Assembly (NCBI GenBank): GCA_039817025.1
Contig: JBCBWQ010000001.1
Location: forward strand, 25,422 to 89,421
Length of the DNA stretch: 64,000 bases
Direction of reading: 5' to 3'
Source of the DNA: Pseudomonadota bacterium
GTDB taxonomy: Bacteria > Pseudomonadota > Alphaproteobacteria > Caulobacterales > Hyphomonadaceae
Part shown: positions 4,643 to 64,000 of the stretch, in pieces
Layout: every line of letters starts with the position of its first letter
Numbering within the stretch: the first letter of the stretch is position 1
The notes under the pieces: generated by a model
What the model saw: only the letters and a program-made list of their open reading frames with translations
Database searches by the model: none
What the model was told of the DNA's origin: nothing
Program-made: the position numbers and the translations under genes

Positions 4643-4647
4643 GTATA

Positions 4648-5977: not shown

Positions 5978-5983
5978 TTCCCC

Positions 5984-6181
5984 ATCAACGGACGGATGCG
6001 CGAGGAATGCCTGAACGAACACCTGTTCCCGTCTCTGCGCCATGCCTGCCGCATGATTGCGGCATGGCGCGCCGACTACAATCAAAACCGGCCTCACTTC
6101 AGTCTCGCTGGCCGGACGCCACACGAATATGCTAACCGGTCAAAGGACCACCAAAACCTGAACAGAGCTAACCTTAGTTAG
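5984..6181 (+). pseudogene. Remainder of the IS407-like OrfB C-terminus
   Basis: INGRMREECLNEHLFPSLRHACRMIAAWRADYNQNRPHFSLAGRTPHEYA. Confidence 0.8.
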
Positions 6182-6205
6182 CGGACTCAACGGGGAGTAG
6201 GTCAC

Positions 6206-7225: not shown

Positions 7226-7559
7226 AGCACCCGTCCATGGTTTCCCAACACAACGGACATTGCTGCAACATAGGCCAGAAAGCGGCAAGAATTGGGAAAT
7301 GTTTGTCGAGCTCTCTTTCTTACACCTTGTACCACTTGCGTGAGCCCCGTGTTACGAGCCTTGCGCAGCTGTACAAAACGCTCTTAGACATCTAGCAGCC
7401 CCAACAGACTCTGCACTACAGAAGACCTTTCCGAGTGCGAGTTTTTCTAGCTTCTCCGGGGCAATCCAACGGTCCGCCTTTGTAAATCATTGGGCCAGCA
7501 AGGGTCTGACAAGTATTGCTTTTTATTTCCGGCTTTGAACCGGTCTGCACGTGTTTCTA

Positions 7560-7829
7560 CTATGCCGCAAGCGGGATTTCGATTGGCGTGCCGATAGCAG
7601 CGTGCTCGCCAAGGAAGCTCTTCAAGTCGTCGCCCTGAATGCCGGTCTCTTCGAAGTCGCGCAGCTGTTCGGCCAGCCGCAAAAATGAAGCATAGGGCAT
7701 CGACTCGAGCTGCGCACGCATTGCCAAGACTGTTGGGTCATTGCGACGAATGCGGGTCGTAGGGCGCTTTGGTTGAATGCTGGTTTGGCACTGCATTGAA
7801 TTACTCCGTATACCGTTTACACACCTCAC
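7560..7829 (-). CDS. Hypothetical small protein
   Basis: ORF only, with no recognisable motif and an alternative start at 7796. Confidence 0.25.
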   Translation of the reverse strand: MRCVNGIRSNSMQCQTSIQPKRPTTRIRRNDPTVLAMRAQLESMPYASFLRLAEQLRDFEETGIQGDDLKSFLGEHAAIGTPIEIPLAA

Positions 7830-8227
7830 TAATAGGCGCGAACTCGTTCGCTTGTTGGACCCAACTGCGGCGCTTTCGAGGTATGTTGACTATGTCTGAC
7901 GGATGGTCCCGGCCCGCCCTATTTCGCACGCTTTAAATCATGCCCCATTTGAGCTTCTTTCGGCGATGACCGGTGATCTTCGGCGATAAGGCATCTACGA
8001 TGTTGGGTTCTTCTGGCCGGTCACGTTCGGACTGAGCAAAAATACTTGTGAGCGGCCTTTTAAGGGTCGCGGCTTGCCGCTATCTGCGTGGTTTAACGGC
8101 AGCTGCATCTTCGCCGCCGCGATTGGATGACGACGAAACATCCTATCGTCGCCCCGCCGTTAGGGTCAGGACCCATTTACTTCCGATAGTCGCCGTGACC
8201 CACGGCTCAAAAGAACAAGCGGTAAAC

Positions 8228-8984
8228 ATATTTGATCTCTGTTGGCTGACGGACGCGCAAATGGTGCGCCCAACCCCCTTCTTCCAAAACTCCTACGGTA
8301 AGCCACGCCTTGATGACCTACGCGTATTGAGCGGGATTATTTTCATCAAGCGCGATGGGTTGAGGTGGCCAGACGCACCTGCGGCCTATGGCCCACACGC
8401 GACTTTCTAAAACGGATGGAAGCGGTGGAGCGACAAGGGTATCTTCGCTCGGGTGATGGCCGGTCTGGCCGCCGAACACTGCGAAGATAAGGCAGTGATG
8501 ATCGACGCCATCTACCTAGGAGCCCACCGCACAGCGACCAGTTTAGGCGTTAGAAAGGGGGCGTGGACGCCTGATCGGTCGCACGAAAGGCGGCATGAAC
8601 ACCAAGCTGCCTGCCATCTGCGACAGCAAAGGCCCACCGCTCAATCTGTTCGACACGGCCGGGCAAGTCAGCGACTACATCGGAGCGCGTGCACTACGAA
8701 GCAGGGTGCCGGACATTGATTGGTTGGTTCCGGATCGCGGCTCTGACGCCGATTAGTTACGAGAAGTGTTGAAAAACAAAGGAATACGCGCCTGCATCCC
8801 CTGCCGGAAGCAGCCCAAGAAACCGATAAAGCACGACAAGCGCCTCTACAATCGCCGCAACTGGATCGAGATCATGTTCGGCAGACTGAAGGATTGGCCG
8901 CGCGTGGGGAACTCATATGACCGCTATCCGAAAGTTTCCCTCTCGGCATTCGCCCTCGCTGCAACTGGGATCTATTGGATGTGA
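8228..8984 (+). pseudogene. IS5-family (IS427-like) transposase, start codon lost and multiple frameshifts
   Basis: Three consecutive frames read (I)FDLCWLTDAQM...GKPRLDDLRVLSGIIFIKRDGLRWPDAPAAYGPH / WKRWSDKGIFARVMAGLAAEH...MIDAIYLGAHRTA / KNKGIRACIPCRKQPKKPIKHDKRLYNRRNWIEIMFGRLKDW. The first codon is ATA. Confidence 0.8.
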
Positions 8985-8993
8985 TTCCCGATG

Positions 8994-9275
8994 CTAGGCG
9001 GCGATGGCGTATTCTTCGTCGGGCTTGTAGCTGCAGATCTTTTCCACAATGCGATCGGCGTCTTCGATGCACTTAACGCGGCGCAGGACGAACTGAATGG
9101 CTTCGGGGAAAGTATCCTGCTGCTCCGAGCAACGTTCCAACGCCCCTTCAAGGTCGCTGAGGTGTTGTTCGCTAAGCCCGCCGACCACGTCAAAATAGGC
9201 TTGCTTTTGGGCCTTGATCTCGCGCAGGCGGATGACTTCGGAGGCACGCTTCGGAGTTGGGATACATGCAATCAT
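8994..9275 (-). CDS. Hypothetical protein (93 aa from the ATG at 9275)
   Basis: ORF only. Its 3' end abuts the IS5 pseudogene, so the C-terminus may be altered. Confidence 0.3.
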   Translation of the reverse strand: MIACIPTPKRASEVIRLREIKAQKQAYFDVVGGLSEQHLSDLEGALERCSEQQDTFPEAIQFVLRRVKCIEDADRIVEKICSYKPDEEYAIAA

Positions 9276-9934
9276 CGTTATCACTCTTGACTGGCCGCGA
9301 AATGGCGCGGCTTTTAACGCTTTCCGTTTACTTACCGTCCACAGAGTGCCCGGTCTTGAAAAGGGCATTCGTGAGCGGCATCCCATTCTAGGATCTGTGG
9401 AACCGACTTACTCGTTACACTCAAGGCCGGCCAGCACACATGGCCATCCCTGAAACACACTCGGTACTCTTACACTACACCGTCGAAACTCGACGAACTG
9501 GTTACTGGCACTTGTTACACTCTCGACTGCGCCACCCTCGCGTTCGATGACGCTTGTTTGAGGCATTTGACCGTGGTTAACAATTCGCTAAATCTTCAAC
9601 ATGGTGGTGTTTTCTTTCACACCACGTTGGATGATTTGTCACCCATTGAGCCGCCTAGCGTAGGTCAGAGTATCGGTAACCCGCTGGGTCGACTGCTCAT
9701 TGTGCATTCTGGTCTCCAGCTTGCTATGGTCTAGAAATCCTAAACGAGGAAACGCAAATGGCTGTGGCTTTCTTGCCTGCCTTTGAAGCGTCTTCTGGGA
9801 ATTGACGCTTGTCCGTCTAGCTTTGAGCCGGAACGACGGCTTTTATGACGTTCGTGGATGCCGCCAAAGTGCGCCGGTCGTGTGTAAGTACGATGTTGCG
9901 CCGGGGAACTTGACCATCCGGCGCAACGGTTTCG

Positions 9935-10690
9935 CTAGGCCACGATGCTCATGTCGCGCAAGAGTTGGCGTTTCGTTGGCAGTTGCCGTTCTTTGGAGAG
10001 CGCTTTCGGAGATGTCTCCAAGAATTGTTCCATATCTGCACGTCTCATCCAAACAAACGTCTCTTCTGCCTCTAGCTCTTCGTCGGGACCAATCCATGCG
10101 CATGGTTCGCACCGTGAATAGCCGTAACGCACCGGAATGCCCTTCATCGCTAATGCGGTTGGGACCAGCCCGAATAGATAGTCAGGCGACCAAATCTTAA
10201 GTGTGATTTCGAATACGATGCGCGACATTAGTGCTGTAAAACCCTGGTTTCGCAGGCCATCGTCCCCACCCTTCAACCAGAATTCACCATGGTAGCAAAC
10301 GCGGCCCGTTATTTGGTCAAGAGACGGCAACCGTGAGAAATGGGTTTGATCCGGGTCTGCGATCATTCCTGGTGAAAGATACTTGTGCCGGTGGTCTCTC
10401 AGATGCTCTTGAAGAGACGTCTTCGACAGATCCATCAGTCTTATTGCTTGTGTGTGCACAACCTCTCGGCGGTCATTGAATGCGCAAACCCAGAAGGCGT
10501 TTTGGGCATCAATGAAAGAACTTGCAGCGTCGAAAATCGGATAGAGTGCCGTACGGTCGGATTGTGTGTTTCTAAGGCGTCTATATGCAACAAAGTCTCC
10601 GCCGATCTCGATCCGCAAACCCGCGGCCTCGAGCTCTTTTACAATATTAGAAACATTTACGATTGTGGTGAAAAGGCTTAGGGCAGTCAT
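9935..10690 (-). CDS. Hypothetical protein, possibly a GNAT-fold acyltransferase
   Basis: 251 aa. ...YHGEFWLKGGDDGLRNQGFTALMSRIVFEI... contains an (R/Q)xxGx(G/A/T)-like motif in a beta-strand/helix context typical of GNATs. No LuxI signature was seen. Confidence 0.35.
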   Translation of the reverse strand: MTALSLFTTIVNVSNIVKELEAAGLRIEIGGDFVAYRRLRNTQSDRTALYPIFDAASSFIDAQNAFWVCAFNDRREVVHTQAIRLMDLSKTSLQEHLRDHRHKYLSPGMIADPDQTHFSRLPSLDQITGRVCYHGEFWLKGGDDGLRNQGFTALMSRIVFEITLKIWSPDYLFGLVPTALAMKGIPVRYGYSRCEPCAWIGPDEELEAEETFVWMRRADMEQFLETSPKALSKERQLPTKRQLLRDMSIVA

Positions 10691-11255
10691 TTCGTTTTCT
10701 CCTTGTGTGCAGCGTGAGGAGGGAAATTATCAATCGCTTACCAAATCTCTCCAATAGAATTTTTGCAATATAAGTTTGGAAAAGGAAAATTTCATCAATT
10801 TCATGAAAATATAAGTATTATACACGAAATTTGAGCTTTTTGATCGCTCGCTTGCGCGGTTCGTCGTCAAGCCGTAGGGCTTGGAATTAAAGGGTACAAG
10901 AGGCATTATGCGCTAGGTGATTATTACGTGCACTACAGCGCGTCACCTTCCAGGTCTGAATTTGGATTGGAAGCTCCCACTTTTTCCGAGGGAGTTGGGT
11001 CATTTGAATTGCCAGTTTCTCTACTGAGAGGCCGAGGAAGTCCAAAGACGTTAATTGCGCTCAAATCATTTTTGAACGAGTGCATGCGCCGTTCTGATGT
11101 AACTTAATCTAGCCCACCCTAGAGAATAGTCTGGGCGAAACATTGCCTGCGGAATCCCTTTCGTCTCCTACGCCTCTACGAAGCTATGGGTCCTATTCTA
11201 CCTTGAAAAGAAATATACTTCCGGATTGGTGAGTGCCGTTACACCAGAGCTGATG

Positions 11256-12131
11256 CTACGTGAACACGTCGTAGTTTTCTGCAGGACTTGGGTTCATTTC
11301 TTGCGCTAGTGCATCTATTTCGACCTCCCTTGTAATGATCACCAGAACGGCCAATACCGGTGTTTGGTCAGGAAGCAACAGAGTCATAAGCAGTCTTTGG
11401 AAGGTAACGGGTACCGGTTCCGGGCTGTCTTCCCTCGGGAGGTGCGCGAACACATGATCCAGTCTGGCCTCGCCGCCTCGATGGACTTTAGAATAAGTCT
11501 CCGAAACCATGCGATCAAATTCGGTGCCGGCCTGGTCCTCGCTTGACAGGTTGCCAACGGCACTTTTTGACCATGCCCATCCAAACCACCGTGTGTATGC
11601 AGACTGATCACCGATCTCCACGCAGAGCCATCCGCGAGGATCTTTCTTGTAAATGATAATATGGGGTCGAATTTCCTGGAAGGCCAAGGACTCCAACTTT
11701 GCCGATGATGCTGCCCAGGCGGCAAGCGCCTCTTGAACGAGGGGGCTCGCTTTGTGTGACATGTGACAAAGCGGGTGTTGTTGGGAAAATGATTCCCGGC
11801 CATCTCCATCAATACAGTGTGACGTCTCAAGCTGCGGCCTAGTAGGTGTCGTAGTGCTAGCGCGCGCGCACCAGCGTTCGGTGAGCGATAGGATTGCCTT
11901 TGCATCGTCGACCATTGCTGCGCCAAGCGGGGTCAGTGCATAATTGTTCCGATTTAACGCAAACAGCGGTGCGCCTTTGAGTTCCTCAAGGTGGGAAATA
12001 TAGCGCCGCACAGTCTGCCGCGTCAGACCTAGTTCGGAAGATACTCGTGTGAGGTTCGGGCTTTTCGAGAGCGCAATGAATGCTCGGAGCATCTCGAGGG
12101 TCTTGTTATCGCCAATGTGCTTCTGAGCCAA
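11256..12131 (-). CDS. Transcriptional regulator with a LysR-type N-terminal HTH and an unrecognised C-terminal domain
   Basis: LEMLRAFIALSKSPNLTRVSSELGLTRQTVRRYISHLEELKGAPLF is a LysR HTH. The remaining 200 aa do not show the usual LysR substrate-binding pattern by eye. Confidence 0.65.
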   Translation of the reverse strand: MAQKHIGDNKTLEMLRAFIALSKSPNLTRVSSELGLTRQTVRRYISHLEELKGAPLFALNRNNYALTPLGAAMVDDAKAILSLTERWCARASTTTPTRPQLETSHCIDGDGRESFSQQHPLCHMSHKASPLVQEALAAWAASSAKLESLAFQEIRPHIIIYKKDPRGWLCVEIGDQSAYTRWFGWAWSKSAVGNLSSEDQAGTEFDRMVSETYSKVHRGGEARLDHVFAHLPREDSPEPVPVTFQRLLMTLLLPDQTPVLAVLVIITREVEIDALAQEMNPSPAENYDVFT

Positions 12132-12398
12132 GTCTATACATCACAGAGATATTTTCAGTGCCTGCATGATATATCATACGCCTTCGGTCGATGGCTATAC
12201 CAACGGAGACAAATAGACTTGGAATTCACACCGCGCACTCGGGCACTTACGCGTGCGCGGAGGTGTTTGGTCCGCTTGTGCGGGTATTTGGGAGTACACA
12301 GAGGTTGATTGATCGACATCACTATGTGGGCGAACTTGGTGCAGGGCCATGGCACCGCGCGCAATTGGCATTTGATCGCGATGGCTTCCGAGCGTGCA

Positions 12399-12698
12399 AT
12401 GGCGAAGTTTGACATAGACCCAACCGAATTCGATGTCGCCGTAGGTGCAGTTTTGAGGTCGCAGCGTAAGAAAGCCGGTTTGGAGGCAAAGCTCGTTGCC
12501 GAGGCGATTGGAGCCAAAGTGGAACAGATTTCGCGCTACGAAGCTGGCACTAACAAAGTCTCAGTTATGCGCCTTTGCCAGTTGGCGAACGTCTTTGATG
12601 TACCCCCATCCGCATTGATGCTGGAAATTGAAGTGAGAGTTTCACAGGGTGCCAAGCTGTCGCGGTCAGACAGCTTCAGGAAAAATCAAAGAACTTAG
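12399..12698 (+). CDS. XRE-family HTH protein, PraR-like paralog lacking the C-terminal domain
   Basis: LRSQRKKAGLEAKLVAEAIGAKVEQISRYEAGTNKVSVMRLCQLANVFDVPPSALMLEIEV is near-colinear with the ORF at 56260..56688. It ends about 45 aa earlier. The start was chosen by alignment; the track ORF starts at 12309. Confidence 0.7.
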   Translation: MAKFDIDPTEFDVAVGAVLRSQRKKAGLEAKLVAEAIGAKVEQISRYEAGTNKVSVMRLCQLANVFDVPPSALMLEIEVRVSQGAKLSRSDSFRKNQRT

Positions 12699-13410
12699 CC
12701 CAAACGGCTTCGCGGGCATTTGCACGGAGCTCTCGTGTGGCCCGAATGGCACTGATGCTTGCGAGAAGACGGCAGCACACCAGCGTAGCTGTTGCTGGGT
12801 GCATCAAGCCTGGTTCTCTAAATCCGATTTGCGGAAGCAGCAGCGATCTGAGGCGAGGGAACGATTTTGTATGGTGTCGCGTTCAGTAAGTGGGCTCCGC
12901 CTACCAACTTGCACGTTGCGTCGCGCAAATAACGGACTATGGGAAACGCTACCGCAACAGCTTTGAGGTTTTATCATAGACAGCTTCAAGATGCTCGAGC
13001 AGTGTGAAGCCGATGACAGCAGATAGTGCAACGCCGGATACGAGTAATCTGCGCGTGGCTGGTTCTTTAGCGCTAGAAAGCGGCTCAACATGCGCCCGCA
13101 CGTTATATCGCACGCATGTGCACTCCTCTACAGAGTTGATGGCAGCGTTGTATCGCCGCTTTTCGAATCCATGCCTGCCGATCAAGATTCTACCCTAGGT
13201 TAATGGTTGAAGTGAGCATTCCTAATAAGGGTTGATTTGTCAACATCAGCCAGTAATGTGGCCATATGAGTGGTGTTATAGCCGCTGGTCTGCATGGAGT
13301 GTTTAGGCGTACGCGTATGCTGTCGGGATGTAGTTTGAAACCTAATTGCCAGAACTGGCCGAGATGATAAGCAGGCCCGGGGGGGCGAGGAGACTGGTGA
13401 AGAAGGTGAA

Positions 13411-13626
13411 ATGGCGATCGACAAGGATGTACCTGCGCTTGCTGAGCGTTTTTTTGATGGGGCCAAAGAAGACTATGAGTTTGTGGCGCATGCCATAAGC
13501 GACCCAGTCGTCCTGTCGCTAATGGAAATTGCCGCCGCGCTCGGGTCAGAGGAGCGCGACCAACTGCTGTTTTTCGCAGAAGATCTGCAGTTGGAAGCAA
13601 TGCGGTGCAAGAATGGCAACGGGTAG
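13411..13626 (+). CDS. 71-aa protein resembling the PraR-type C-terminal domain only (no HTH)
   Basis: FFDGAKEDYEFVAHAISDPVVLSLMEIAAALGSEERDQLLFFAEDL. The F..(12)..FV..ISDP.V...L..L..AL pattern matches the C-terminal part of PraR/PhrR-like regulators as I recall them. It is convergent with the XRE gene at 13706..14122. Confidence 0.55.
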   Translation: MAIDKDVPALAERFFDGAKEDYEFVAHAISDPVVLSLMEIAAALGSEERDQLLFFAEDLQLEAMRCKNGNG

Positions 13627-13705
13627 CCTAAGCTTCCTGATCGGATACTGCAAAGAAGACATGATCCAGGGGTTGGTCAGAGACTGGCGCCGCCAGTGAA
13701 GAAAT

Positions 13706-14122
13706 TCACTTTCGCTGACTGCGCGACGCAAGCTTCGCTACTGTGGCAAGTGCCGCGCTGAAGTCTTCGTTATCCATTTCCACCAAAGACGACGTCAAAA
13801 TGCGGCCGGTCGAGGAACCAAGAAAGGCAAGCTCTTGGGCGCGTTCATGCGTTTGCGATGCTTCTGGATCGCGAAGTGCGTTTTCAAGCTCACTTAGAAG
13901 CGCCACGGCATCAACGCCGACTGCTTGTGCAATTGCAAGCAGTCTGTGTACGGAAACCCGATTGAGCCCGACCTCATACTTCTGAATTTGCTGAGCTGAA
14001 GTGCCCACTGAGCGCCCAAGGTCTTCTTGTGAAAGCCCGGCCGATTTGCGGTGAAGCCGGATCAGGTTGCCCAAAGCTTCATCAGTCTTCTGTGGGTCAG
14101 GTGCTGTCATCTGTGCCCGCAA
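13706..14122 (-). CDS. XRE-family regulator, PraR/PhrR-like (HTH plus C-terminal domain)
   Basis: LIRLHRKSAGLSQEDLGRSVGTSAQQIQKYEVGLNRVSVHRLLAIAQAVGV..., then ...ELAFLGSSTGRILTSSLVEMDNEDFSAALATVAKLA. Confidence 0.8.
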   Translation of the reverse strand: MRAQMTAPDPQKTDEALGNLIRLHRKSAGLSQEDLGRSVGTSAQQIQKYEVGLNRVSVHRLLAIAQAVGVDAVALLSELENALRDPEASQTHERAQELAFLGSSTGRILTSSLVEMDNEDFSAALATVAKLASRSQRK

Positions 14123-30034: not shown

Positions 30035-30256
30035 TTCTTCGATCTCCCGATGTTTTCTCTGGCTTTTGTGCCGGAGATAGTTGTTTTTTCTTTCGATCCT
30101 TTGGCCTTGTTAACGAATACGCGCTATCTGAAGTTGATAGTCAACATGCATATAGTAACCAGAGGTTGGTATCCGGTTCTGCTGCGCTGTTCCTGTGCCA
30201 AGTCGGCAACAGGCGCAGTCATTGGCTCGCAACGGTAATTGCGGCGCGTCGCAGTC

Positions 30257-30946
30257 TTATTCGGATCTGCCTGGGTGGATCAGCGTGCACGTCGACGGTG
30301 TGTCGCCCGACGTTGGAATGCGAGCAGTCTCCACAAGCGCGCGCTGGGCCGCCATCTGCAGGAAAAAGTCCAGAACACGGTGCCCAGACCCCACTGCGAT
30401 ACTGCCATCGCGGGCCAGGACCAGCTCGGGCACGGCCGCGAGCGTGCGCCCGGCGCTCAAGGGGCCGTCGAGTTCGATCATGACATCAGACCCCGATCGA
30501 ACGACCCTCCGCACCATGGCTGTGTGGGGCCCGGGCCGCCTGTTCGCGCCATCAGCGCGGCGTGGATCGCCATAAACACCGGTCGCAGGATCCCTTGCGC
30601 CTGCAAAGGCCATCTTGAACGTCGCTTTCCGAAGCGCGACCTGAAGGCGCTCCTTCACCGTAGGACTGACAACTGCCTCGGCCCGAGCGCGGCGCTGAGG
30701 CATGTGTGGGAGGCCGGCCCAACTTGTAGCCAAACGGTCGTAGGCAGTGTTTATGTCGACCAGGCGCTCATTCGCCCCGGGCATCTTGCGGTGAAGCTCA
30801 CCATGCAAGCGCCGGGCAAGCGACCGGTACGCCGTTTTGATGTCATGCAGAGTGCTGGTTTCACAGCAGCCGAGGATCGCAAGATCCCGCGCGATAGTCC
30901 CGTCCATCGAAGCCCCCAAGGCCGAATTGCGGCCGTAATGGGGCAA
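30257..30946 (-). CDS. J-domain-like protein lacking the HPD motif
   Basis: ARDLAILGCCETSTLHDIKTAYRSLARRLHGELHRKMPGANERLVDINTAYDRLA aligns with J-domain helices I-III, with HGE in place of HPD. The likely start is M14 (30907). The opposite-strand ORF at 30239..31042 is Arg-rich and was rejected. Confidence 0.5.
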   Translation of the reverse strand: MPHYGRNSALGASMDGTIARDLAILGCCETSTLHDIKTAYRSLARRLHGELHRKMPGANERLVDINTAYDRLATSWAGLPHMPQRRARAEAVVSPTVKERLQVALRKATFKMAFAGARDPATGVYGDPRRADGANRRPGPHTAMVRRVVRSGSDVMIELDGPLSAGRTLAAVPELVLARDGSIAVGSGHRVLDFFLQMAAQRALVETARIPTSGDTPSTCTLIHPGRSE

Positions 30947-31076
30947 AGGTTGGCAGAATGTGTGGCGCGCTTCGCGAGAATTCTGCGGAGAGGAGAGAAT
31001 TCAGGGGTTTTTGTTGCGAGACCATGGTCAATCTGCGCCTAAAAGGACCACCAGATTGCTGATCTGGAAACGAAGG

Positions 31077-32728: not shown

Positions 32729-33673
32729 ATGGACCATCCAACAACACTCATCTACCTGGCGGACGTGGAAACGCTGAGCCAACTGCACCGCAACTGGCCG
32801 AGCGATTTGCGCGTCGCATTGTGCTTGGAAGAGGGTGGTGAAAGTGACGTCATCGTTATTCGTCAGGACGAGGTTGATGAAGCGCCGGAACGCGTGGCCG
32901 CTTTGTTGGGTCGGGACGATGCCGATTTCGTAATCGTTCCTGTGCTTGGCGGTTATCCAACGCGGCGTCTGAGTTTTTCGCAAGAACAGCAACTTTGCGT
33001 AATGCTTGCAGATATGGTCGAGCTTCCCGATCAGGCGCGATCGAACTTCGATTATTTGGCAGAGAGTAACGGGCTCTCTGATGAGACTGGTTGCGAGAGC
33101 GAGATCCTGAAAAAGCCTGTAGTGGCGTCAAGCATCGCGCAGGCCCATCCAGCGGTTCACCCGGCGTTGGCCGAAATAGCAGATGAGGTGATCGGTCACT
33201 GGGGCAGGGTGGAACGATCCGGCACGGTTTGGTGTTTTACGGTCGATGGCATGCCAGAGTGCGATGATCACCCGCCCAGCATCTTTGCCCATCCAATTGC
33301 ACTGTCCGACGATCGGCGGCGTCTGCAGGCGGTGCTGGCACTGGCCACTGACTGGCGGGGTGGATTGCCGCAAGCCTTTCAGATGCCCGTCGATGGATTG
33401 CCAGACGGTTGCCCCGACCTGCAGGACGGCACAACGCATCGCGTATTCTTTCGTTCGGAAGGGACCGCGCTGACGATCACTTTGCCTGTCTTGAAACCGT
33501 CCGCTTCCTCATCGCCCCTCGCCGACACTGCAAAACCGCGTCGGCGCCGCCTTCTTGGGCCAGCCTTGGCTGCGGCAACGGCGCTGGTGATGGTTCAAGT
33601 GGGCACATCTCCGGACGTCATCGATGCAATGCGCGCGGCCGGCACATTTCAATCGGGCTTCCAGGACAGGTGA
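32729..33673 (+). CDS. Hypothetical protein with a C-terminal transmembrane tail, divergent from motA
   Basis: 314 aa with no motif I recognise. RRRRLLGPALAAATALVMVQVG near the C-terminus looks like a single TM helix. Confidence 0.55.
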   Translation: MDHPTTLIYLADVETLSQLHRNWPSDLRVALCLEEGGESDVIVIRQDEVDEAPERVAALLGRDDADFVIVPVLGGYPTRRLSFSQEQQLCVMLADMVELPDQARSNFDYLAESNGLSDETGCESEILKKPVVASSIAQAHPAVHPALAEIADEVIGHWGRVERSGTVWCFTVDGMPECDDHPPSIFAHPIALSDDRRRLQAVLALATDWRGGLPQAFQMPVDGLPDGCPDLQDGTTHRVFFRSEGTALTITLPVLKPSASSSPLADTAKPRRRRLLGPALAAATALVMVQVGTSPDVIDAMRAAGTFQSGFQDR

Positions 33674-35933: not shown

Positions 35934-36545
35934 ATGACGACCAAGACAGATACTCTTTTGCATGCAATTTGGACCTGTGCCGTAAGCCCCGTTCACCCTG
36001 ACGCAAAACACCCGCTCATCGCTCTTGTAGAGACTTTTCTAAAAGTAAAAGCCGTCGTGATCGAAGTCCCCACAGGTCCGCTTTGTGGCCGCGTGTTTCA
36101 GGAAACGACCGAGCTGATGCCCGATCTGCCGATTGCGGATGTCCTGGAGCACGAGCTTGATATCTGCGTTCCCGCTGGTGCGATCATCATCTGCTTATCG
36201 GCCGATGCCCAGGACACAAGGGGCAACTTACGCGCAGCGTCACGGGCATTGGGCACGTTTTGTGCCGAGGTTGTCGTCGACACCGTGCAGCTGGCCGCCA
36301 CCCCGTTTGCCGATGAACGCAAAGAGATGCGTGAACGTGCACAGGCAATAATGTCTCTGGCCCGTCAACTCGCGACTGCGCCCGGCGCCGTGGACGTCCC
36401 AAGTTTCAAGTCCGCACTGGCACGGGGTTTCGGAGAGCTTCTCGGAGGGCCGGCCAATGCGCGCTCCGCCGATGCCACGCTTGCAGCGCTGTACGTTCCT
36501 GAGGCTGACACCACTAATACGCTAGCCGCCGCCCGCAGGGTTTAA
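35934..36545 (+). CDS. Hypothetical protein upstream of the sigma factor gene
   Basis: A 203-aa ORF with coding-like GC3 and no motif recognised. Confidence 0.5.
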   Translation: MTTKTDTLLHAIWTCAVSPVHPDAKHPLIALVETFLKVKAVVIEVPTGPLCGRVFQETTELMPDLPIADVLEHELDICVPAGAIIICLSADAQDTRGNLRAASRALGTFCAEVVVDTVQLAATPFADERKEMRERAQAIMSLARQLATAPGAVDVPSFKSALARGFGELLGGPANARSADATLAALYVPEADTTNTLAAARRV

Positions 36546-42991: not shown

Positions 42992-43023
42992 CAAGATTAA
43001 ATGTTGCACAACCGAAGAATAAA
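42992..43023. repeat. flgF/orf612 divergent spacer: CAAGATTAA (42992-43000) and AAGAATAAA (43015-43023)
   Basis: Read directly. Confidence 0.6.
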
Positions 43024-43041
43024 TGCAAGTATAAATTTGAA

Positions 43042-44880
43042 ATGACCAAGTACAGTAGAAAATTTTCGGCGCTTATCCTTTATTCTTGTCTTGGGGTGGG
43101 GACCGCACTTGCCGCCGATCCGCCGGAGCCGGTGGGCGGCGAAGGGGTGGCTGCCGACGCAGCAACTGCGCATCAGCCACTTGCCAGCACGCCTCAGTGC
43201 TATGGGGGTCACCGCGCCGCACTTCGCCGTCTCGCCGAGACGCAGGAAGCAGATCGTACACCTACGCACCCAAGCCGGGCGGTTGAGCATCTGGAACTGG
43301 CGGAAGACTACTTCGAAAAGGGGCTGATACTCGAAGCGTGGTCGTTCGCTAAAGACATTTCGGACGAAGCTTTGCCACCGGACCTCGCTACCAAACGGCT
43401 TCAGCTTCTGGCGATGGCAACTGTTCTGGATCCGCGCCCGGGCGCGAAGCCGCAAGTGGCCGATAGCGCGTTTGAGGCCATGCCAAAGCGCGCGGTGTTT
43501 CAGGCGCTGGCCCACGCGCGGGCTGGCCGTGCAGCACAAGCCGCTGCATCGCTGGCCGATCACATTGATGATCTTACGTCGCTTCCCGTTGCGATACGGG
43601 CCCGAGCTTTGCCGTATCTTCTGCTTTCTGCGATCGAAGCCAACGATTGGATAACGAGCCGTGCTTTGGTCGTGGCGTTCCAAGATCACCCGGCACTCGC
43701 GGGCTCGGCCGCGTTTTCCTACCTGTTGGGCCATACGGCGCTGCAAAATGGCGAACGGCTGCGTGCGTTTGACCACTTTACCGCTGCATCTGGCAGCGCC
43801 GACAAGTGGGGCCACCGCGCACGGTTGCAGATGGTCGACCTTGCGGTGGCGCATGGGGGCGTTACCGCGAAAGAGCATGAGCACATGCTGATGCGGATCT
43901 ACGGCGCGTGGCGTCTTGGCCCGGAAGCGAGCGGGACGCTGCTGCGCATCGAAGATCTGCAGATGCAGCAGGGCAACCGCTTGGGGGCGCTTCAGACGCT
44001 GTCAACGTTGATGACAAACCACGCGGGATCGGAGGAAGCGCTTGAGGCGCGGGGGCGGGCCCGCTTGATCCTAGCAGAGTTCTACCGCCGTTTGATCAAG
44101 GACGGTGCAGATCTCAATACGGTGATCAAAAGCCACGAAGAGGTTGCCAGTGACTATCGCTTTTTCGAAGGTTTCGATGTCTACGCCGAGATGTTTGCGG
44201 ATCACCTGTTGTCGGTCGGACTTTCGGGACGCGCGGCGCAGGAATACCGCCTGACCGGGGAGTATCTTGCCGCGGCGAAAAGCCTTGGGCTTTTCGAAAC
44301 CCAATCCGAGCGGACCGACGCGTTGCGCCTGAAAGAGGCCGAAGCGCTTTTGGAAGGGGGGCAGATTGCAAGGGCAAAAGGCATACTGGAGGTGTCGTTA
44401 TCCGTCGACGCGCCACGCATGGTGGCGCGGCTTGCATCGCTGCGTGCGGTGTATTTTGCGCGAACCGGCGAGACACTCAGCGAAGCCGAGGCGACATCTG
44501 CGCGCCCAAGCGGTTTCATCCGTGAGCTCGCAGAGCAGTACTTTGAAGCGGAACAATGGGACTTGGCGCGGTTGGAATACCTCAAACTGGCCCGGGTCAT
44601 GGGCGACGATCTTGCCACGCCGGATGCGGTTAACCTGTTTCTGGCTGCGGAGCGCAGTGGGGATGCAGCCCTCTCAAAGGTGCTCGGCGATCTGGTTGCT
44701 CAGCGGCCCGATTTTGATCAGGCCTCTGTTGCCGCAGGGTTGAACATCGCTGCCGAAACGGACGACAAAATCCGCCGCAAAACACTTGACGCTGTTGTCG
44801 AGCGTGCGGAACGAGTGCTCATTGAAGTGGATGCGCTGGCCAGTGAAGGACCGCCGGATCCCGATGCTCTCCAAGAATAA
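43042..44880 (+). CDS. Large secreted helical-repeat (TPR-like) protein of unknown function
   Basis: 612 aa with signal peptide MTKYSRKFSALILYSCLGVGTALA. It is A/L/E/R-rich with repeated helical hairpin-like segments. It sits between flgF and flgE. Confidence 0.6.
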   Translation: MTKYSRKFSALILYSCLGVGTALAADPPEPVGGEGVAADAATAHQPLASTPQCYGGHRAALRRLAETQEADRTPTHPSRAVEHLELAEDYFEKGLILEAWSFAKDISDEALPPDLATKRLQLLAMATVLDPRPGAKPQVADSAFEAMPKRAVFQALAHARAGRAAQAAASLADHIDDLTSLPVAIRARALPYLLLSAIEANDWITSRALVVAFQDHPALAGSAAFSYLLGHTALQNGERLRAFDHFTAASGSADKWGHRARLQMVDLAVAHGGVTAKEHEHMLMRIYGAWRLGPEASGTLLRIEDLQMQQGNRLGALQTLSTLMTNHAGSEEALEARGRARLILAEFYRRLIKDGADLNTVIKSHEEVASDYRFFEGFDVYAEMFADHLLSVGLSGRAAQEYRLTGEYLAAAKSLGLFETQSERTDALRLKEAEALLEGGQIARAKGILEVSLSVDAPRMVARLASLRAVYFARTGETLSEAEATSARPSGFIRELAEQYFEAEQWDLARLEYLKLARVMGDDLATPDAVNLFLAAERSGDAALSKVLGDLVAQRPDFDQASVAAGLNIAAETDDKIRRKTLDAVVERAERVLIEVDALASEGPPDPDALQE

Positions 44881-54452: not shown

Positions 54453-56165
54453 GTGATGACGATGCTTTATTTTGAGTTGGACACCGGAGAAGCCGCTGTC
54501 GCACCGAATGCAAGCGAAATTGATAGCACCGCGCTTGGGGCACGGTATGTCAGTTATCGCAATGACGCTCGGTTTGAGGCCCATATCGACGAAATGGATC
54601 CGGGGCTCATTGTCTGGCCCGGTGGCGACCTTGCAGAACGCCGCGATGATCGGTTCGGCTTTGAGTATGACGACCTTTACAACGACACGGTCGATCGGCC
54701 TGGTCTGACAGAGATGATGGCGTTTGCGGTGTCACAGGATGCCGCCCTGTCGGTTGTCCTGCCGACCGTGCGATATCTTGGGCGTGAAAACGACCTCAGA
54801 AACGATGTCCAAGGGTTCATGGAAAAGCTCTTGGGCGGGGACTATGGCCCCTTGCCGAACGAACTGATCCTCGAAGTTGGGAGTGAATACTACGCCTACT
54901 TCGAAGACGGCGCGGAGAGCGCAGAAACTCACTACGCCACGCTTGCTGACATCATGGTCACAGAGATTGCATTGTCGTTGAACGATACGACGGTGAACCC
55001 AGGCGGTTTTGACGTGACGATTGCTGTTCAGGCCGGGCGTGAGTTGGCGCGGGATGCAGATATCCGTGATGGGCTCAGTGACTATGCGCTGCAAAACACC
55101 GAGATGGTAATCCATCATCGGTTCCCGGTTCAGACGCAGGGATTTGATGGCCGGATCGATGACCAGATAGAAATCAACGATGCTTGGGAGCAGGATGTCC
55201 AAGACGCCGGCGGTGATGAACCCGAGATGTTGGTTTCGGCTTGGAACGTGGCGCAAATCACACGCGGGTCTGCGCTGTCGATGTTTTTGAACGAGAACGA
55301 TGACGTCGCTGAGAGCGATGTCGATCTTGAAGCGCGCAACCATGTCGAGTTCGAGAGATATTGGCAGTCGCTCCTTAAGGACTATGACTATGGCGCGCGC
55401 CACCCAGGCCTGATTTTGGAAGGTTTCTCCACTTTTGCCGAGGCTGGGATGGATGCTGGTGCCGTGTTTGGCGTTGACGTCATTCATCCGGGGCGCTTGT
55501 CCTGGCGGGACGAGCAGGGCGACGACCATCTGTTTGCCGGTGGCGAAATGCTCAAGATGATCTACGAAAGTGTTGAGGGCACGCGCGCGCTTGCCTCTGA
55601 TGAAGACTATGATCGCACCGCATCCGCGACGACCTATGCGTTTGAAGGGGACGACAAGCTCGTTGTCTTTGTGGCTGCGGGTGCAGACGCGAGCACAGAG
55701 GTCGGGATAGAGATCGATGGTCTCGGCTCAGACTACGTTTCGGTGTTCGCAGATAGGCTTGCAATTGGTGAGAACGCGCATTGGATGACGGATTTTGGTA
55801 TCGTTGATAACCCACATGTGGACGAAAGCCCCGAAGCCGGAACCTATGCGCCCGGGGCGCGCACTGAAGCCGAAGTTTCGGTCTATGACGACGCGGTCGT
55901 GGTGCAACTGGGCACGCATGAGGTGGTTCGGTTGGCCTTCGCGAAAACCACGGATGCCGCGCACGAGTTGAGCGAGGTGTCTGAGGGGGATGAGGTTTTG
56001 CTGCAACTCGCAGATCTGCCCGTGCTGACACCACCACCGGGTAGCGGTGTGGGCGATTTGGGACAATCTGCCTTGTCTGGCGAAGGTGAGGGGGAGCTAG
56101 ATGCTGGTTGGGCAGGCGGAATGCTGGGAGGTTTGATTTTGCCCTTGCTCTTGCTTCTCCTTTGA
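54453..56165 (+). CDS. Large acidic protein with a C-terminal hydrophobic tail, function unknown
   Basis: 570 aa, D/E-rich, no N-terminal signal peptide seen. It ends ...GEGEGELDAGWAGGMLGGLILPLLLLLL*. Confidence 0.55.
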   Translation: MMTMLYFELDTGEAAVAPNASEIDSTALGARYVSYRNDARFEAHIDEMDPGLIVWPGGDLAERRDDRFGFEYDDLYNDTVDRPGLTEMMAFAVSQDAALSVVLPTVRYLGRENDLRNDVQGFMEKLLGGDYGPLPNELILEVGSEYYAYFEDGAESAETHYATLADIMVTEIALSLNDTTVNPGGFDVTIAVQAGRELARDADIRDGLSDYALQNTEMVIHHRFPVQTQGFDGRIDDQIEINDAWEQDVQDAGGDEPEMLVSAWNVAQITRGSALSMFLNENDDVAESDVDLEARNHVEFERYWQSLLKDYDYGARHPGLILEGFSTFAEAGMDAGAVFGVDVIHPGRLSWRDEQGDDHLFAGGEMLKMIYESVEGTRALASDEDYDRTASATTYAFEGDDKLVVFVAAGADASTEVGIEIDGLGSDYVSVFADRLAIGENAHWMTDFGIVDNPHVDESPEAGTYAPGARTEAEVSVYDDAVVVQLGTHEVVRLAFAKTTDAAHELSEVSEGDEVLLQLADLPVLTPPPGSGVGDLGQSALSGEGEGELDAGWAGGMLGGLILPLLLLLL

Positions 56166-57201: not shown

Positions 57202-57690
57202 ATGATGGAGCCAAGGCAGGTGGCGCAGAGCGCGCTGTTCTACGAGCTCTCGATCGAGGATCATGTGTCACCGGATCATGTGTTGCGCGCGATGGACCGG
57301 TTCGTCGATCTCGGCGACATGCGCCGACATCTGGCGCCGTTCTACGGCACGACAGGTAGGCCCTCGGTCGATCCCGAGCTGATGATCCGGATGCTGATCG
57401 TTAGTTACGCCTTTTGGATCCGGTCGGAGCAGCGGCTTTGCGAGGAGGTACATCTCAATCTCGCGTATCGCTGGTTTTTGTCGCCTCGATCTGAGCGATC
57501 CGGTGCCCGACCACTCGACCTTCTCGAAGAACCGGCATTGACGGTTCCGAGATAGTGACCTCTTCCGGCACCTGTTCGAGAGCGTCGTCGCCCGCTGTAT
57601 CTCCGACGGCCTTGTCGGAGGTCAGACCTTCGCTTCGGATGCCAGCCTGATACGGGCGGATGCAAACAAGCAGTACGCAGCGGCCAAGGA
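57202..57690 (+). pseudogene. IS5/IS1182-family transposase N-terminal fragment with a frameshift and an in-frame stop
   Basis: ALFYELSIEDHVSPDHVLRAMDRFVDL...GRPSVDPELMIRMLIVSYAFWIRSEQRLCEEVHLNLAYRWF. After a +1 shift it reads CRLDLSDPVPDHSTFSKNRH*RFRDSDLFRHLFESVVARCI...ASLIRADANKQ. Confidence 0.75.
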
Positions 57691-60873: not shown

Positions 60874-62766
60874 ATGGAACAATCACTAGCATTGACCGCA
60901 TCGGCATTGTGGATCTCTTTTGCGTTCTTCGCACAAGGACTGTCGCAAGGCGCGTCGCGGCTTCTAATCTGGTCAACGTTTGCGGTACTGATGTGCTATT
61001 TTGGATGGCGCGTCGCCTTCACTATTCTTCCCTTCTGGCACGACGCGGACATCTTCGTGGTTTGGGTCCTGATCTTCCTGGCCGCTGAGATTCTCAGTGT
61101 CGCGGATTTCCTTCAATGCTGTGCATTCAAAAGCTTGTCCTCCGCGCACCAAAAAACGACTCGTCACCGCGTGCTACCCAGGTTTTCGGCTAAGCGGCAT
61201 CGGTCGACGGTTGATCTGCTTATTCCGACTTATAGCGAACCGGTTGAACTGCTGCGCAAGACTCTGATCCGAGCGAAAGAGATCGATTATGATCACCTGA
61301 CCATCAATTTGCTGGACGATGCGCGAAGAAATGAAGTCAAAGAGCTGTGTCGTGAGCTTGGCGTCACCTACTTCTCGCGCGCCGATAACGTCGGCGCTAA
61401 AGCCGGCAATATGAACAATGCCTTGCCGCAACTAAAGGGTGAGTTTCTGGCAATTCTCGACGCCGACTTCTTGGCATTTGAGAACTTTGCCAAAGCAGCA
61501 CTTCCCTATTTCGATGATTCAGCTGTGGGATGCGTGCAATTCCCGCAGACGTTCTACAATCCTGATCCGTCTCAGATTAACTCAGGGCTTTTTGCGACGT
61601 TCAAAGACGAGCAATGGCACTGGTTTCGGCGGGTCCTTCCAGAGCGCGACCTCTTGGACCTCGCCACGTCTTGCGGAAGTTGTTCGTTTGTCCGTCGGTC
61701 TGCTCTTGAGGCGATCGGGGGGCGGTTTCCTGAAGAGACGATTACCGAGGATTTTGACCTGTCACTTCGGTTCTTGGAACGAGGTTTCGTAACGCGGTAC
61801 GTAAACGAGACTGTCGCGATCGGGCTGTCCCCGTTCACAACGCAAGACTTCTTCAAGCAACGTCAAAGGTGGGCGCTTGGCAATCTTTCTGCGTGGCGTC
61901 GCGCGTTTTTGTCCAGAAAGAAGATCAGGCTTTATGAACTGCTGCTGATTTTTGAATGGAGGATTGTGAGTCTACCTGCCCGTGTTGTCACCTTCCTGGG
62001 TCCGGTCGTCGTCCTGCTGTTTGACCTGTGGCCGCTCAAAGTCACATCCTTTTCTGAGTATGCGCTGTTCACGGTTCCGTTTATCTTCCTGCTCTGCTCG
62101 TTTGAGGCCAGCAGCGGCCCGCGATCTGCTTTCGGGTTTATTGCATCCCAAGCTCGGACGATTGGAGTTGCTTTGGTTTTAGGCGTGCAATTCCTTCTTA
62201 CACCATTGGTGAGCAACAAGCTCGGGTTCAGCGTAACACCCAAGACCGCCGGAAAGCAGGGTGCAGATCGCTTCTTCATGATCATTTTCTTGAGCGCTCT
62301 CCTTTCCGCAGGTGCGCTTGCGGTCGGACTGTACCGCTACGCAGAGGCGGACGCGGTCTCACACACACTGGAAGTCGTATTGGCATGGCAAGCATACAAC
62401 TTGTTGCTTGTTTCAGTCGCGACTTGGATGTTCAGACCAACCGTAGCCAAACGTATGAGCGAACGGTTTTTGCCGATTGATTGTCTGGAAGTGGACGTCG
62501 CAGATACGAAAGGTGCCTTCGTAGCGACGGCAGACACTATTGACGTGTCAGAAGGAGGAATGAGACTTCGCTCACAGCAGGCTCTGAATAGCGAACGATA
62601 CAAAGTGCTATTTGACAACGAATGGGCCGATGTTGAAGTCCTTCGATGTGTTAGAATAAGCGCGAGTGAATGGCACATCTCCTTGGTGTTTTCGGACCCC
62701 AACGCTGTATCTGACCATATTGTAAGGCTGATCTACTCGCAGAGCTTTAAAGCAGAGATCCTTTGA
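60874..62766 (+). CDS. BcsA-like family-2 glycosyltransferase with C-terminal PilZ domain (c-di-GMP-gated polysaccharide synthase)
   Basis: N-terminal TM helices; LIPTYSEP...LDDARR...ILDADF...TEDFDLSLR...QRQRWALGN (D, DxD, TED, QxxRW); further TM helices; PilZ motifs RMSER (RxxxR) and DVSEGG (DxSxxG). Confidence 0.85.
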   Translation: MEQSLALTASALWISFAFFAQGLSQGASRLLIWSTFAVLMCYFGWRVAFTILPFWHDADIFVVWVLIFLAAEILSVADFLQCCAFKSLSSAHQKTTRHRVLPRFSAKRHRSTVDLLIPTYSEPVELLRKTLIRAKEIDYDHLTINLLDDARRNEVKELCRELGVTYFSRADNVGAKAGNMNNALPQLKGEFLAILDADFLAFENFAKAALPYFDDSAVGCVQFPQTFYNPDPSQINSGLFATFKDEQWHWFRRVLPERDLLDLATSCGSCSFVRRSALEAIGGRFPEETITEDFDLSLRFLERGFVTRYVNETVAIGLSPFTTQDFFKQRQRWALGNLSAWRRAFLSRKKIRLYELLLIFEWRIVSLPARVVTFLGPVVVLLFDLWPLKVTSFSEYALFTVPFIFLLCSFEASSGPRSAFGFIASQARTIGVALVLGVQFLLTPLVSNKLGFSVTPKTAGKQGADRFFMIIFLSALLSAGALAVGLYRYAEADAVSHTLEVVLAWQAYNLLLVSVATWMFRPTVAKRMSERFLPIDCLEVDVADTKGAFVATADTIDVSEGGMRLRSQQALNSERYKVLFDNEWADVEVLRCVRISASEWHISLVFSDPNAVSDHIVRLIYSQSFKAEIL

Positions 62767-63025: not shown

Positions 63026-64000
63026 TCAGTCCGGTACACCAACTTCTGCTAAAGCGGCCAGCCATCGGTCACGCGGCGCGGCAACCGTCCAATTCCGAGC
63101 ATTGGTTTCAACTTCTCGCGCAAGCGTCCAATCCGGGTATCGCTCGAGAAACGACCGGGCCGCCATCTGAGCCGCCACGCGGTCCTGAAGACACAAATGA
63201 ACGACCGAAAGCAGCTTCAGCGCCTCAGGTGGGATCACAGGGATCGCCTGCAGGACGTCCAATGCGCCCTCGCAATCGTTGCCCTGCCATGCGGACCAGG
63301 CGCGCATCCAAAGCGTCACGGTATCCTGGATCGGGTCGATGCGTGCGACGCGTTCCAGCACCCTATGCACATCGTCGAGACGGTCGGAATAGATATAGGC
63401 CTGCGCCAGCGCGTTCAAAACGGTGATCGACGATGGGTTCAACGCAGCCGAGACTTCTAAAGCCGCGACTGATCGCTCGATCTCACCCTGCTGCATCAGC
63501 ACCCGGCCCAAAGCGAAATGTGTGATGTAGTTCTGCGGAGCCAGTTCCACGGCGCGCCGCGCGAGCGTCTCTGCCTCGGTGAGCAGGTCTTCGGTGCTTT
63601 CGCCCGACCAGCCGAAGCGCACACCGATCCTCAGCATCAATGCGCGGCCGACATATCCCCATTCCGACTCCGGGAACCTTTCAATCGACTCCTGCGTCAG
63701 GGCGAGCGCATCGATCCAGCGGTCCGGGCCCGGCGCGGATTGAAACAGCACCCGAACGCGCTTGTCGAGGATCAGCGCATCGACCTGGCCTTCGGGCCGC
63801 GCCGCCGCCGCGTTGATTGCGACGACCGAACTGCTGATGGCGTGCGCGACGCGGTAGGCAATCGTGTCGTTGACGTCGAACATGTCCTCGAGCGGCACCT
63901 CGAAACGATCGACCCACACATTGGTGAGATCGCTGGCATCGATCATCTGAACCGAGATGCGCAGAGTGCCATTTTGGACAACATGGCTGCCTTGCACGAG
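63026..64000 (-). CDS. TPR-repeat protein, C-terminal part (5' end beyond the right window edge)
   Basis: ...LRISVQMIDASDLTNVWVDRFEVPLEDMFDVNDTIAYRV... (a TolB-N-like segment common in cyclase/CadC-type proteins), followed by TPR-like repeats. The reading frame is open to the window end. Confidence 0.7.
   Translation of the reverse strand, partial: LVQGSHVVQNGTLRISVQMIDASDLTNVWVDRFEVPLEDMFDVNDTIAYRVAHAISSSVVAINAAAARPEGQVDALILDKRVRVLFQSAPGPDRWIDALALTQESIERFPESEWGYVGRALMLRIGVRFGWSGESTEDLLTEAETLARRAVELAPQNYITHFALGRVLMQQGEIERSVAALEVSAALNPSSITVLNALAQAYIYSDRLDDVHRVLERVARIDPIQDTVTLWMRAWSAWQGNDCEGALDVLQAIPVIPPEALKLLSVVHLCLQDRVAAQMAARSFLERYPDWTLAREVETNARNWTVAAPRDRWLAALAEVGVPD

Follow-up and report, generated by a model that had tools for sequence, protein, structure and literature searches.

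BcsB is considered essential for the activity of bacterial cellulose synthases, and the BcsB-less relatives in diderms that are known to us, BgsA and the cyanobacterial XcsA, carry an HlyD adaptor instead. The synthase CrdS of Agrobacterium, which makes the beta-1,3-glucan curdlan, is encoded with crdA and crdC. This work concerns a BcsA-like processive glycosyltransferase of family 2 (GT2) with a C-terminal PilZ domain (hereafter the synthase), encoded within 64,000 nucleotides of a Hyphomonadaceae genome (assembly GCA_039817025.1, contig JBCBWQ010000001.1, positions 25,422 to 89,421; this whole stretch is hereafter the window). Based on the comparisons below, we propose with moderate confidence that it is a BcsB-independent beta-glucan synthase-translocase, controlled by cyclic di-GMP (c-di-GMP) through its PilZ domain and receiving this signal from a sensor diguanylate cyclase/phosphodiesterase (DGC/PDE) encoded next to it.

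The synthase has the fold of BcsA (4HG6 and 4P00 of Rhodobacter/Cereibacter sphaeroides, 9B8V of Escherichia coli) and shares with it the GT-A domain with the D, DxD, TED and QxxRW motifs, the interface helices, the transmembrane channel, the FxVTxK loop and the C-terminal PilZ domain with RxxxR and DxSxxG. It differs from BcsA in having no C-terminal extension past PilZ, in its three predicted N-terminal transmembrane helices, in F321 at the position of Glu371, in DEQWxW for ENxMFY, and in having no bcsB, bcsZ or bcsC nearby. A BcsB-less GT2-PilZ synthase has a precedent in RiGT2, the (1,3;1,4)-beta-glucan synthase of Romboutsia ilealis, which was active alone in yeast and, according to its authors, is without the N-terminal helix that coils with BcsB (PMC10374906). 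RiGT2 (637 aa, against 630 aa here) has the same architecture of seven transmembrane helices, a count predicted for both enzymes, without the extra N-terminal helix, followed by PilZ and with no bcsB neighbour, and it also shares the PilZ motifs R-x-S-E-R and (D/N)xSExG as well as a non-acidic residue (Thr308) at the Glu371 position. However, its host is a monoderm with no outer-membrane barrier, and it reads LHVGT and DADM where the synthase reads TSCGS and DADF. Orthology with RiGT2 was rejected, as in BLAST, with the RiGT2 sequence rebuilt from the supplement of the paper, the family of the synthase scores lowest to RiGT2 (148-208 bits, against 202-307 bits for nearly all other BcsA-like proteins). 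The traits that both enzymes share therefore seem to have arisen in parallel, in distinct lineages without BcsB.

Compact synthases of about 650 aa that are BcsB-independent and c-di-GMP-activated are also known from BgsA/BgsB of Sinorhizobium, which makes mixed-linkage glucan (MLG) with an HlyD-like adaptor and TolC, and from the cyanobacterial Tll0007/XcsA-HlyD-TolC system. Their HlyD-linked relatives in our comparison share with the synthase DADF and a Gln at the His276 position of BcsA; but the adaptor gene lies directly upstream in the BgsA/Xcs type and never does so in the clade of the synthase. Additionally, BgsA has no PilZ domain (PMC5567048) and the sampled rhizobial HlyD-linked proteins are without RxxxR and DxSxxG, whereas the clade of the synthase has the domain and keeps both motifs. 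CrdS, compared here by its published description, resembles the synthase in its three N-terminal transmembrane helices and in Gln at both the His276 and Asn298 positions, but lacks the PilZ signature (PMC6821405). The 'orphan BcsA-like' proteins of pseudomonads (NdvB) likewise have a BcsA-like GT2 and transmembrane region encoded away from any bcs operon, but they are GH17-GT2 fusions without PilZ, for which a cyclic beta-1,3-glucan product was proposed (PMC10237404); this family was rejected as a match, its members P0057 and P0060 scoring only 88-99 bits.

The synthase gene starts with ATG and is preceded by an in-frame stop codon, so the short N-terminus is real and no annotation artefact. 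Pfam assigns the protein to GT2 families (PF13632, 8e-23; PF13641, 2e-19; PF00535, 4e-17), and the closest solved relatives in a PDB sequence search are the Rhodobacter and E. coli BcsA (about 1e-47), with about 25% identity to BcsA. An AlphaFold2 (AF2) model from a 44-sequence alignment (predicted local distance difference test, pLDDT, 91; predicted TM-score, pTM, 0.90) superimposes on BcsA, the top Foldseek match being the c-di-GMP-bound form 4p00_A with a TM-score (TMq) of 0.83, while hyaluronan and chitin synthases reach only TMq 0.33-0.53. In this model the three N-terminal helices (Table 1) are followed by the GT-A domain and the QRQRW interface helix, then by a transmembrane pair (363-383/393-414), a helix (419-442), the gating loop (452-457), a second transmembrane pair (466-491/497-519) and a beta-barrel (527-627). 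An earlier note, made by reading this DNA alone, had named the full processive GT2 signature, the two PilZ motifs and a length below that of typical BcsA, and all of these were found again: the catalytic motifs D148/D149, D196xD198, T291ED293 and Q329RQRW333, the PilZ motifs R527MSER531 and D557VSEGG562, and 630 aa against 735-894 aa for the BcsB-linked BcsA of the comparison set. K176AGN179 and the BcsA-type gating-loop motif F452SVTPK457 are present as well. In an alignment of 16 family members, 35-44% identical to the window protein, the catalytic, gating-loop and PilZ motifs are invariant with one exception, D557 being N in two members. Such invariance indicates purifying selection and argues for a functional enzyme with a functional putative nucleotide-binding site.

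The synthase is a member of an alphaproteobacterial clade within the BcsA superfamily that is rare and has not been described before; our literature search returned papers on the BcsB-less relatives (RiGT2, BgsBA, the cyanobacterial Xcs and the pseudomonad GH17-GT2 'orphans') and none that describes the clade itself. A word-indexed search gave one near-identical protein, P0001 (at NCBI 'MAG: glycosyltransferase family 2 protein [Pseudomonadota bacterium]'), and then about 19 proteins with 39-51% identity and 358-552 bits, after which the scores drop to at most 226 bits, where cyanobacterial cellulose-synthase-like proteins start. Exhaustive profile searching of 1.84 billion representatives retrieved only 10 proteins scoring over 600 bits, plus two intermediates at 571 and 515 bits, which puts the clade at about 12 clusters; a continuum follows below 402 bits, with 2,107 proteins in all at E<=1e-30. 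Clade loci occur in only 3 of 185,579 species-representative genomes, all of them alphaproteobacterial metagenome-assembled genomes, and scanning of metagenomes brought six further full-length members, one of them in a Tara Oceans sample. In a neighbour-joining tree of 63 synthases, midpoint-rooted and without support values, the clade is monophyletic and stands apart from BcsB-linked enzymes and from the HlyD-linked (BgsBA and Xcs type) proteins, the latter being its nearest outgroups.

Partner genes were sought with hidden Markov models (HMMs) of BcsB (from 8 sequences), of the HlyD adaptor linked to synthases (27) and of GH8 (9), all built from outgroup loci. The targets were all six-frame open reading frames (ORFs) of the window, of contig L008, and of all family loci (16 loci, namely the window/L008 and 15 others). 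L008, found by scanning species-representative genomes, shows 6 differences from the window over about 3.6 kb and reaches 1.7 kb past its end. There was not a single match at E<=10 in the 64-kb window, the L008 extension or the 15 other family loci, while positive controls scored 397-1112 bits (BcsB 792-1112, HlyD 397-574). Nine family loci offer at least 2 kb downstream of the synthase, the position of bcsB, and nine offer at least 1.3 kb upstream, the position of the adaptor. The earlier note had seen no BcsB, BcsZ, BcsC or membrane-fusion gene near the synthase, and this holds for the window, for the next 1.7 kb, where a bcsB immediately beyond the window would have lain, and for the surroundings of the 15 other family members. 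ORF clustering over eight family loci yielded the synthase and c-di-GMP signalling proteins as the only recurrent families, and the rest of the window has no polysaccharide export genes by Pfam annotation.

These results bear first on a reading of the synthase as the BgsA/XcsA-like inner-membrane part of a tripartite exporter, whose dedicated HlyD-type adaptor and TolC-like channel would be encoded elsewhere. The nearest outgroups are HlyD-linked, with HlyD directly upstream of the synthase at 34 of 46 outgroup loci, and the family has DADF, PQ and a compact size in common with them. The host is a diderm, carrying the L- and P-ring genes FlgH and FlgI, and an outer-membrane route is needed if the polymer is secreted; in the BgsBA system, TolC is indispensable to the making of MLG though unlinked (PMC13438883). 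However, no adaptor appears at any family locus, including the nine with enough upstream sequence to hold it; no HlyD Pfam family is recorded for any called neighbour of the family loci; and the apparent transfer of a two-gene cassette without an adaptor (below) argues against a dedicated partner. We therefore consider this reading unlikely.

The second question is whether c-di-GMP acts on the enzyme. The upstream neighbour, a DGC/PDE as the earlier note had it, is a PAS-PAS-PAS-GGDEF-EAL protein with intact motifs (GGEEF, EALIR of the EALxR type, DDFG, EGVE, KLD and QGF) and no RxxD I-site, and is a probable local source and sink of c-di-GMP. It lies on the same strand as the synthase, the 69-nt gap between them holds no terminator-like site, in a promoter/terminator scan whose counts were at or below shuffle expectation, and the two genes are presumably co-transcribed. 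Its first PAS domain was considered as a YtvA/LOV type and rejected, as the match is weak and the NCRFL cysteine motif is absent. Among 14 informative family loci, eight have an intact adjacent GGDEF/EAL/HD-GYP gene (GGDEF-EAL, REC-GGDEF-EAL, or HD-GYP with REC-GGDEF), and at three more (L004, L090, L093) an EAL gene is reduced to the last 64 codons of a copy that is intact in L092. Since the neighbour architectures vary among PAS-GGDEF-EAL, REC-GGDEF-EAL and HD-GYP with REC-GGDEF, functional coupling is suggested, beyond inherited synteny alone.

It could be objected that PilZ is only structural, as reported for RiGT2, and that the enzyme is constitutive, with c-di-GMP acting, if at all, on transcription. 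The Glu371 position of BcsA is F321 in the synthase and non-acidic in 14 of 16 family members, whereas it is E or D in 45 of 47 outgroups; although the Arg580 equivalent is kept (R527), the autoinhibitory Arg580-Glu371 salt bridge is not possible as in BcsA, and RiGT2 has lost the acid too. The acid within RxxxR (RMSER) was considered as a family-specific substitute for Glu371; this idea was weakened, since HlyD-linked PilZ synthases have RKEER and yet keep the Glu. On the other hand, R527, R531, S559 and G562 never vary, and position 557 stays D or N, in a family otherwise about 35-44% identical to the window protein, and the side chains of RxxxR and DxSxxG serve, to our knowledge, only nucleotide binding. 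The varied c-di-GMP turnover genes, or their remnants, beside most informative loci also speak against a merely structural domain. In RiGT2 itself the activity was not stimulated by c-di-GMP in vitro and the isolated PilZ did not bind it, yet deletion of PilZ abolished activity; for the binding test, PilZ had been fused in isolation to GFP and produced in yeast, and the authors regard this test as inconclusive (PMC10374906). A purely structural PilZ is thus rather improbable in our judgement.

Still less probable is an ordinary cellulose synthase subunit with BcsB (and BcsC/BcsZ) encoded elsewhere in the genome and cellulose as its product. BcsA does provide the best sequence and structure matches, the PilZ, gating-loop and catalytic motifs are conserved, the whole genome is not in view, and alphaproteobacterial BcsB can be very divergent (PMC7112194). 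However, although BcsA models rank first among the NCBIfam families, the synthase stays far below both equivalog cutoffs (TIGR03030, 278.3 bits against 699.1; PRK11498, 183.3 against 992) and falls in a separate clade, and bcsB adjoins none of the 16 family synthases, yet lies immediately downstream of every BcsB-linked synthase in the comparison set. Additionally, by AF2 prediction and hydropathy the synthase has three N-terminal transmembrane helices where Rhodobacter BcsA has four (of eight in all), and only about 41 residues precede its conserved YFxWR helix, against about 78 in the Rhodobacter enzyme, so that about 37 residues, roughly one helix, are absent. The helix that thus appears to be missing from the synthase is the additional N-terminal one for which pairing with the BcsB anchor is reported in BcsA (PMC10374906), and the same reduced N-terminal topology is described for CrdS and BgsA (PMC6821405).

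The active-site motifs also set the synthase apart from orthodox BcsA. Following the DxD motif, BcsB-linked enzymes read DADH or DCDH, HlyD-linked enzymes and the clade of the synthase DADF, and RiGT2 DADM; the VQxPx motif is VQTPH, VQTPQ, VQFPQ and VQVPQ in BcsB-linked enzymes, HlyD-linked enzymes, the clade and RiGT2, respectively. In the same order, the acceptor motif is FFCGS, mostly FCCG(S/T), TSCGS and LHVGT, and the E(N/Q) motif is ENxMFY, mostly DEQRxFF, DEQWxW and NEQDFFM. The signature DxDH/VQTPH/FFCGS, common to all BcsB-linked enzymes, is therefore replaced by DADF/VQFPQ/TSCGS. The synthase has Gln at both the His276 and the Asn298 positions of BcsA, two of the substitutions by which CrdS is reported to differ from BcsA close to the channel entrance (PMC6821405). 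This hints that the product may not be pure beta-1,4-glucan, but the substitutions are not diagnostic of the product, because HlyD-linked enzymes of unknown product share both. The failed BcsA cutoffs, the separate clade and the Gln substitutions lend indirect support to the idea of a different glycan. The synthase also fails the models of N-acetylglucosamine (GlcNAc) polymerases (PgaC, 57 bits against a cutoff of 422; NodC, 42 against 550). A glucan is favoured over a GlcNAc polymer, because the CelA model scores 278 bits against those low values for PgaC and NodC and the TED motif is present; the donor is most probably UDP-glucose.

The synthase and its PAS-GGDEF-EAL neighbour seem to have been acquired as a two-gene cassette, with a GC content of 52% and third-position GC (GC3) of 55-58%, against a GC3 of 67-74% in the flagellar genes and the downstream regulator. 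The dip in GC content spans 57.8-63.0 kb and starts just past a DUF772 transposase fragment that is truncated; a search for direct or inverted repeats bounding the cassette gave nothing convincing. To a decaying or functionless cargo of such an island we give hardly any weight: the low-GC setting beside the transposase fragment, the split synthase copy at locus L007 and the decayed upstream EAL gene at L004, L090 and L093 would fit it, but the gene is a full-length intact frame with clade-wide invariant motifs and a confident predicted fold, and a near-identical copy in a second assembly (L008) has only 4 differences within the gene.

For the BcsB-independent, c-di-GMP-controlled synthase that we favour, the following course may be envisaged. 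A single inner-membrane polypeptide would act as a processive synthase-translocase for a beta-glycan, which it would polymerise and translocate without BcsB, as do RiGT2, the CrdS/BgsA-type enzymes and the plant CesAs. Binding of c-di-GMP at the RxxxR and DxSxxG motifs of PilZ would free the gating loop and switch the activity on, and the adjacent PAS-GGDEF-EAL enzyme would supply or remove c-di-GMP locally. The resting-state latch must differ from that of BcsA, since Phe321 stands in place of Glu371. Candidate products are cellulose, a mixed-linkage glucan or a beta-1,3-containing glucan, and the polymer might leave through an unlinked generic channel or be kept in the periplasm. Presumably the enzyme is both autonomous from any partner and activated by c-di-GMP.

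Several points weigh against this proposal. Several family contigs have short flanks, the partner search covered neighbourhoods and not whole genomes, and the BcsB model was built from only 8 sequences; the divergence of alphaproteobacterial BcsB and the dependence of BgsBA on an unlinked TolC, both cited above, are the main reasons for caution. The tree that separates the clade carries the limits given with it. As to control, no c-di-GMP gene adjoins the synthase at three family loci (L094, L122, L124), the Pfam PilZ match (PF07238) of 22.1 bits is marginally below the gathering score of 22.5, the c-di-GMP independence reported for RiGT2 is a contrary precedent, and the loss of the Glu371 equivalent could mean that the enzyme is not autoinhibited at all.

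A more far-reaching version is possible though doubtful, namely a self-sufficient, single-protein, c-di-GMP-controlled glucan synthase-translocase working in a diderm without BcsB, adaptor or dedicated porin, passed on horizontally with its own sensor DGC/PDE in the form of a two-gene plug-in, using another latch and making a non-cellulosic or periplasmic glucan. A clade with the c-di-GMP switch but neither partner would show the least equipment with which a Gram-negative envelope can sustain signal-gated glucan synthesis, and would offer a natural test of PilZ gating without the Arg580-Glu371 latch. The compact module of sensor DGC/PDE and synthase could serve the engineering of beta-glucan production, and a product that stays in the periplasm would link c-di-GMP to periplasmic glucans.

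Table 1. Coordinates of the synthase, its parts and the adjoining features in the window (aa, residues of the synthase).
Feature	Position	Strand	Basis
BcsA-like processive GT2 glycan synthase with C-terminal PilZ, 630 aa	60874..62766	+	ORF, Pfam, NCBIfam, PDB match, AF2, Foldseek
N-terminal membrane region, three predicted helices (aa 2-20, 27-54, 62-96)	60877..61161	+	AF2 secondary structure, hydropathy
Cytoplasmic GT-A catalytic domain, aa 113-320 (DD, AKAGN, DADF, VQFPQ, TSCGS, TED)	61210..61833	+	Pfam, invariant columns, motif comparison
QRQRW motif, aa 329-333, interface helix IF2	61858..61872	+	Conservation, AF2
Gating-loop motif FSVTPK, aa 452-457	62227..62244	+	Match to BcsA F503AVTAK508 (numbering from PMC10374906), family conservation
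PilZ beta-barrel, aa 527-627, with R527xxxR531 and D557xSxxG562	62452..62754	+	PF07238 (22.1 bits), invariant motifs, AF2 pLDDT >90
PAS-PAS-PAS-GGDEF-EAL protein, 870 aa	58192..60804	+	Pfam, motif check; 69-nt gap to the synthase
DUF772 (IS5-type) transposase fragment, truncated, near the left end of the low-GC cassette	57202..57555	+	PF05598 (1.4e-12)
C-terminal TPR part of a 571-aa winged-helix/transmembrane/TPR (CadC/HilA-like) regulator, not part of the system	63026..64000	-	L008 extension, Trans_reg_C and TPR, NCBIfam CadC/HilA

The convergent TPR protein that the earlier note placed downstream of the synthase is indeed convergent and carries TPRs, but it is actually a membrane-anchored winged-helix transcription regulator. 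It runs off the window and, completed from L008, has a Trans_reg_C winged helix and one transmembrane segment before its TPRs; being of this CadC/HilA-like type, it was rejected as a BcsC or BcsK. Beyond it, L008 encodes a small protein of unknown function. Positions 1-49 of L008 depart from the window sequence and look like a neighbouring segment read on the reverse strand, probably as an assembly-end artefact.

The only large unannotated ORF in the vicinity, at 54453-56165 (+), encodes 570 aa without any Pfam, NCBIfam or PDB sequence match, ending in a disordered linker and a C-terminal hydrophobic tail (GGMLGGLILPLLLLLL), with no obvious signal peptide. Its AF2 model (pLDDT 84) is a TIM barrel with a beta-sandwich, resembling GH51, GH79, GH30 and GH39 of clan GH-A (TMq about 0.5), and its homologs form more than 120 clusters in Rhodobacterales/Paracoccaceae, with RTX (HemolysinCabind) tails in some of them. 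As a cryptic BcsB or obligate partner it was rejected on account of the GH-A-like fold, of a family whose spread exceeds that of the synthase clade more than tenfold, and of its absence from the other family loci. It may represent an uncharacterised glycoside-hydrolase family, and an accessory glycanase role in this particular genome is possible.

Directly upstream of the c-di-GMP/synthase cassette, at about 14300-54300, lies a complete flagellar cluster of alphaproteobacterial type, an association found only at the window locus. It comprises FliI, FlhA, FliR, FlhB, FliM/N, FliL, FliF, FliH, FliP, FliG, MotA, MotB, a sigma factor, FliK, FlgD, FlgH, FlgF/G, FlgE, FlgK, an FlgL-like protein, FlgI, flagellin and DUF1217. 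Some ORFs in the cluster have no Pfam match, namely one of 612 aa at 43042-44880 (+), just upstream of FlgE, and those at 30239-31042, 32729-33673, 35934-36545 and 42997-43884; these may be in part shadow ORFs and in part flagellar proteins specific to the lineage. The first 14,000 nucleotides of the window (1-14000) are patchy and lower in GC content, and may be another island; they hold an IS110-family transposase (4904-6124, -), a LysR-type regulator (11256-12131, -) and a 360-aa protein with a weak receiver domain and a GC content of 49% (6206-7288, -).

Variants were seen among the relatives of the synthase. P0011, P0013 and P0016 (L004, L090-L094), and also P0003 and P0008, carry a C-terminal extension of about 90-200 aa past PilZ, which looks coiled-coil-like in the P0011 group. 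It is at the P0011-type loci, L092 excepted, that the upstream GGDEF-EAL gene has shrunk to the 64-codon remnant described above. The sub-clade at L001, L007 and L010 has the gene order EamA transporter, HODM_asu-like protein (PF11927), synthase, small HD-GYP-like protein and REC-GGDEF, and the synthase of L007 is split into two ORFs by a frameshift or a sequencing error. In a group of HlyD-linked loci from Limnohabitans/Comamonadaceae (L011-L022, L039), on which our literature searches returned nothing, a Crp-family regulator, an HlyD adaptor, a PilZ-bearing synthase of about 660 aa, a periplasmic binding protein and a PAS-GGDEF-EAL protein follow each other in conserved order. An intermediate relative of the synthase (L095/L096, 2-9693; 621 aa, 34% identity) has its gene directly downstream of those for a 2515-aa protein and for an ABC exporter (ABC_membrane plus ABC_tran), which is reminiscent of a glucan synthase coupled to an adhesin system of type I secretion. 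At L126, the gene of the 515-bit relative P0070 is surrounded by numerous small ORFs without annotation, together with a Band_7 protein and a T4-type RNA ligase, which suggests a phage or mobile-element context.

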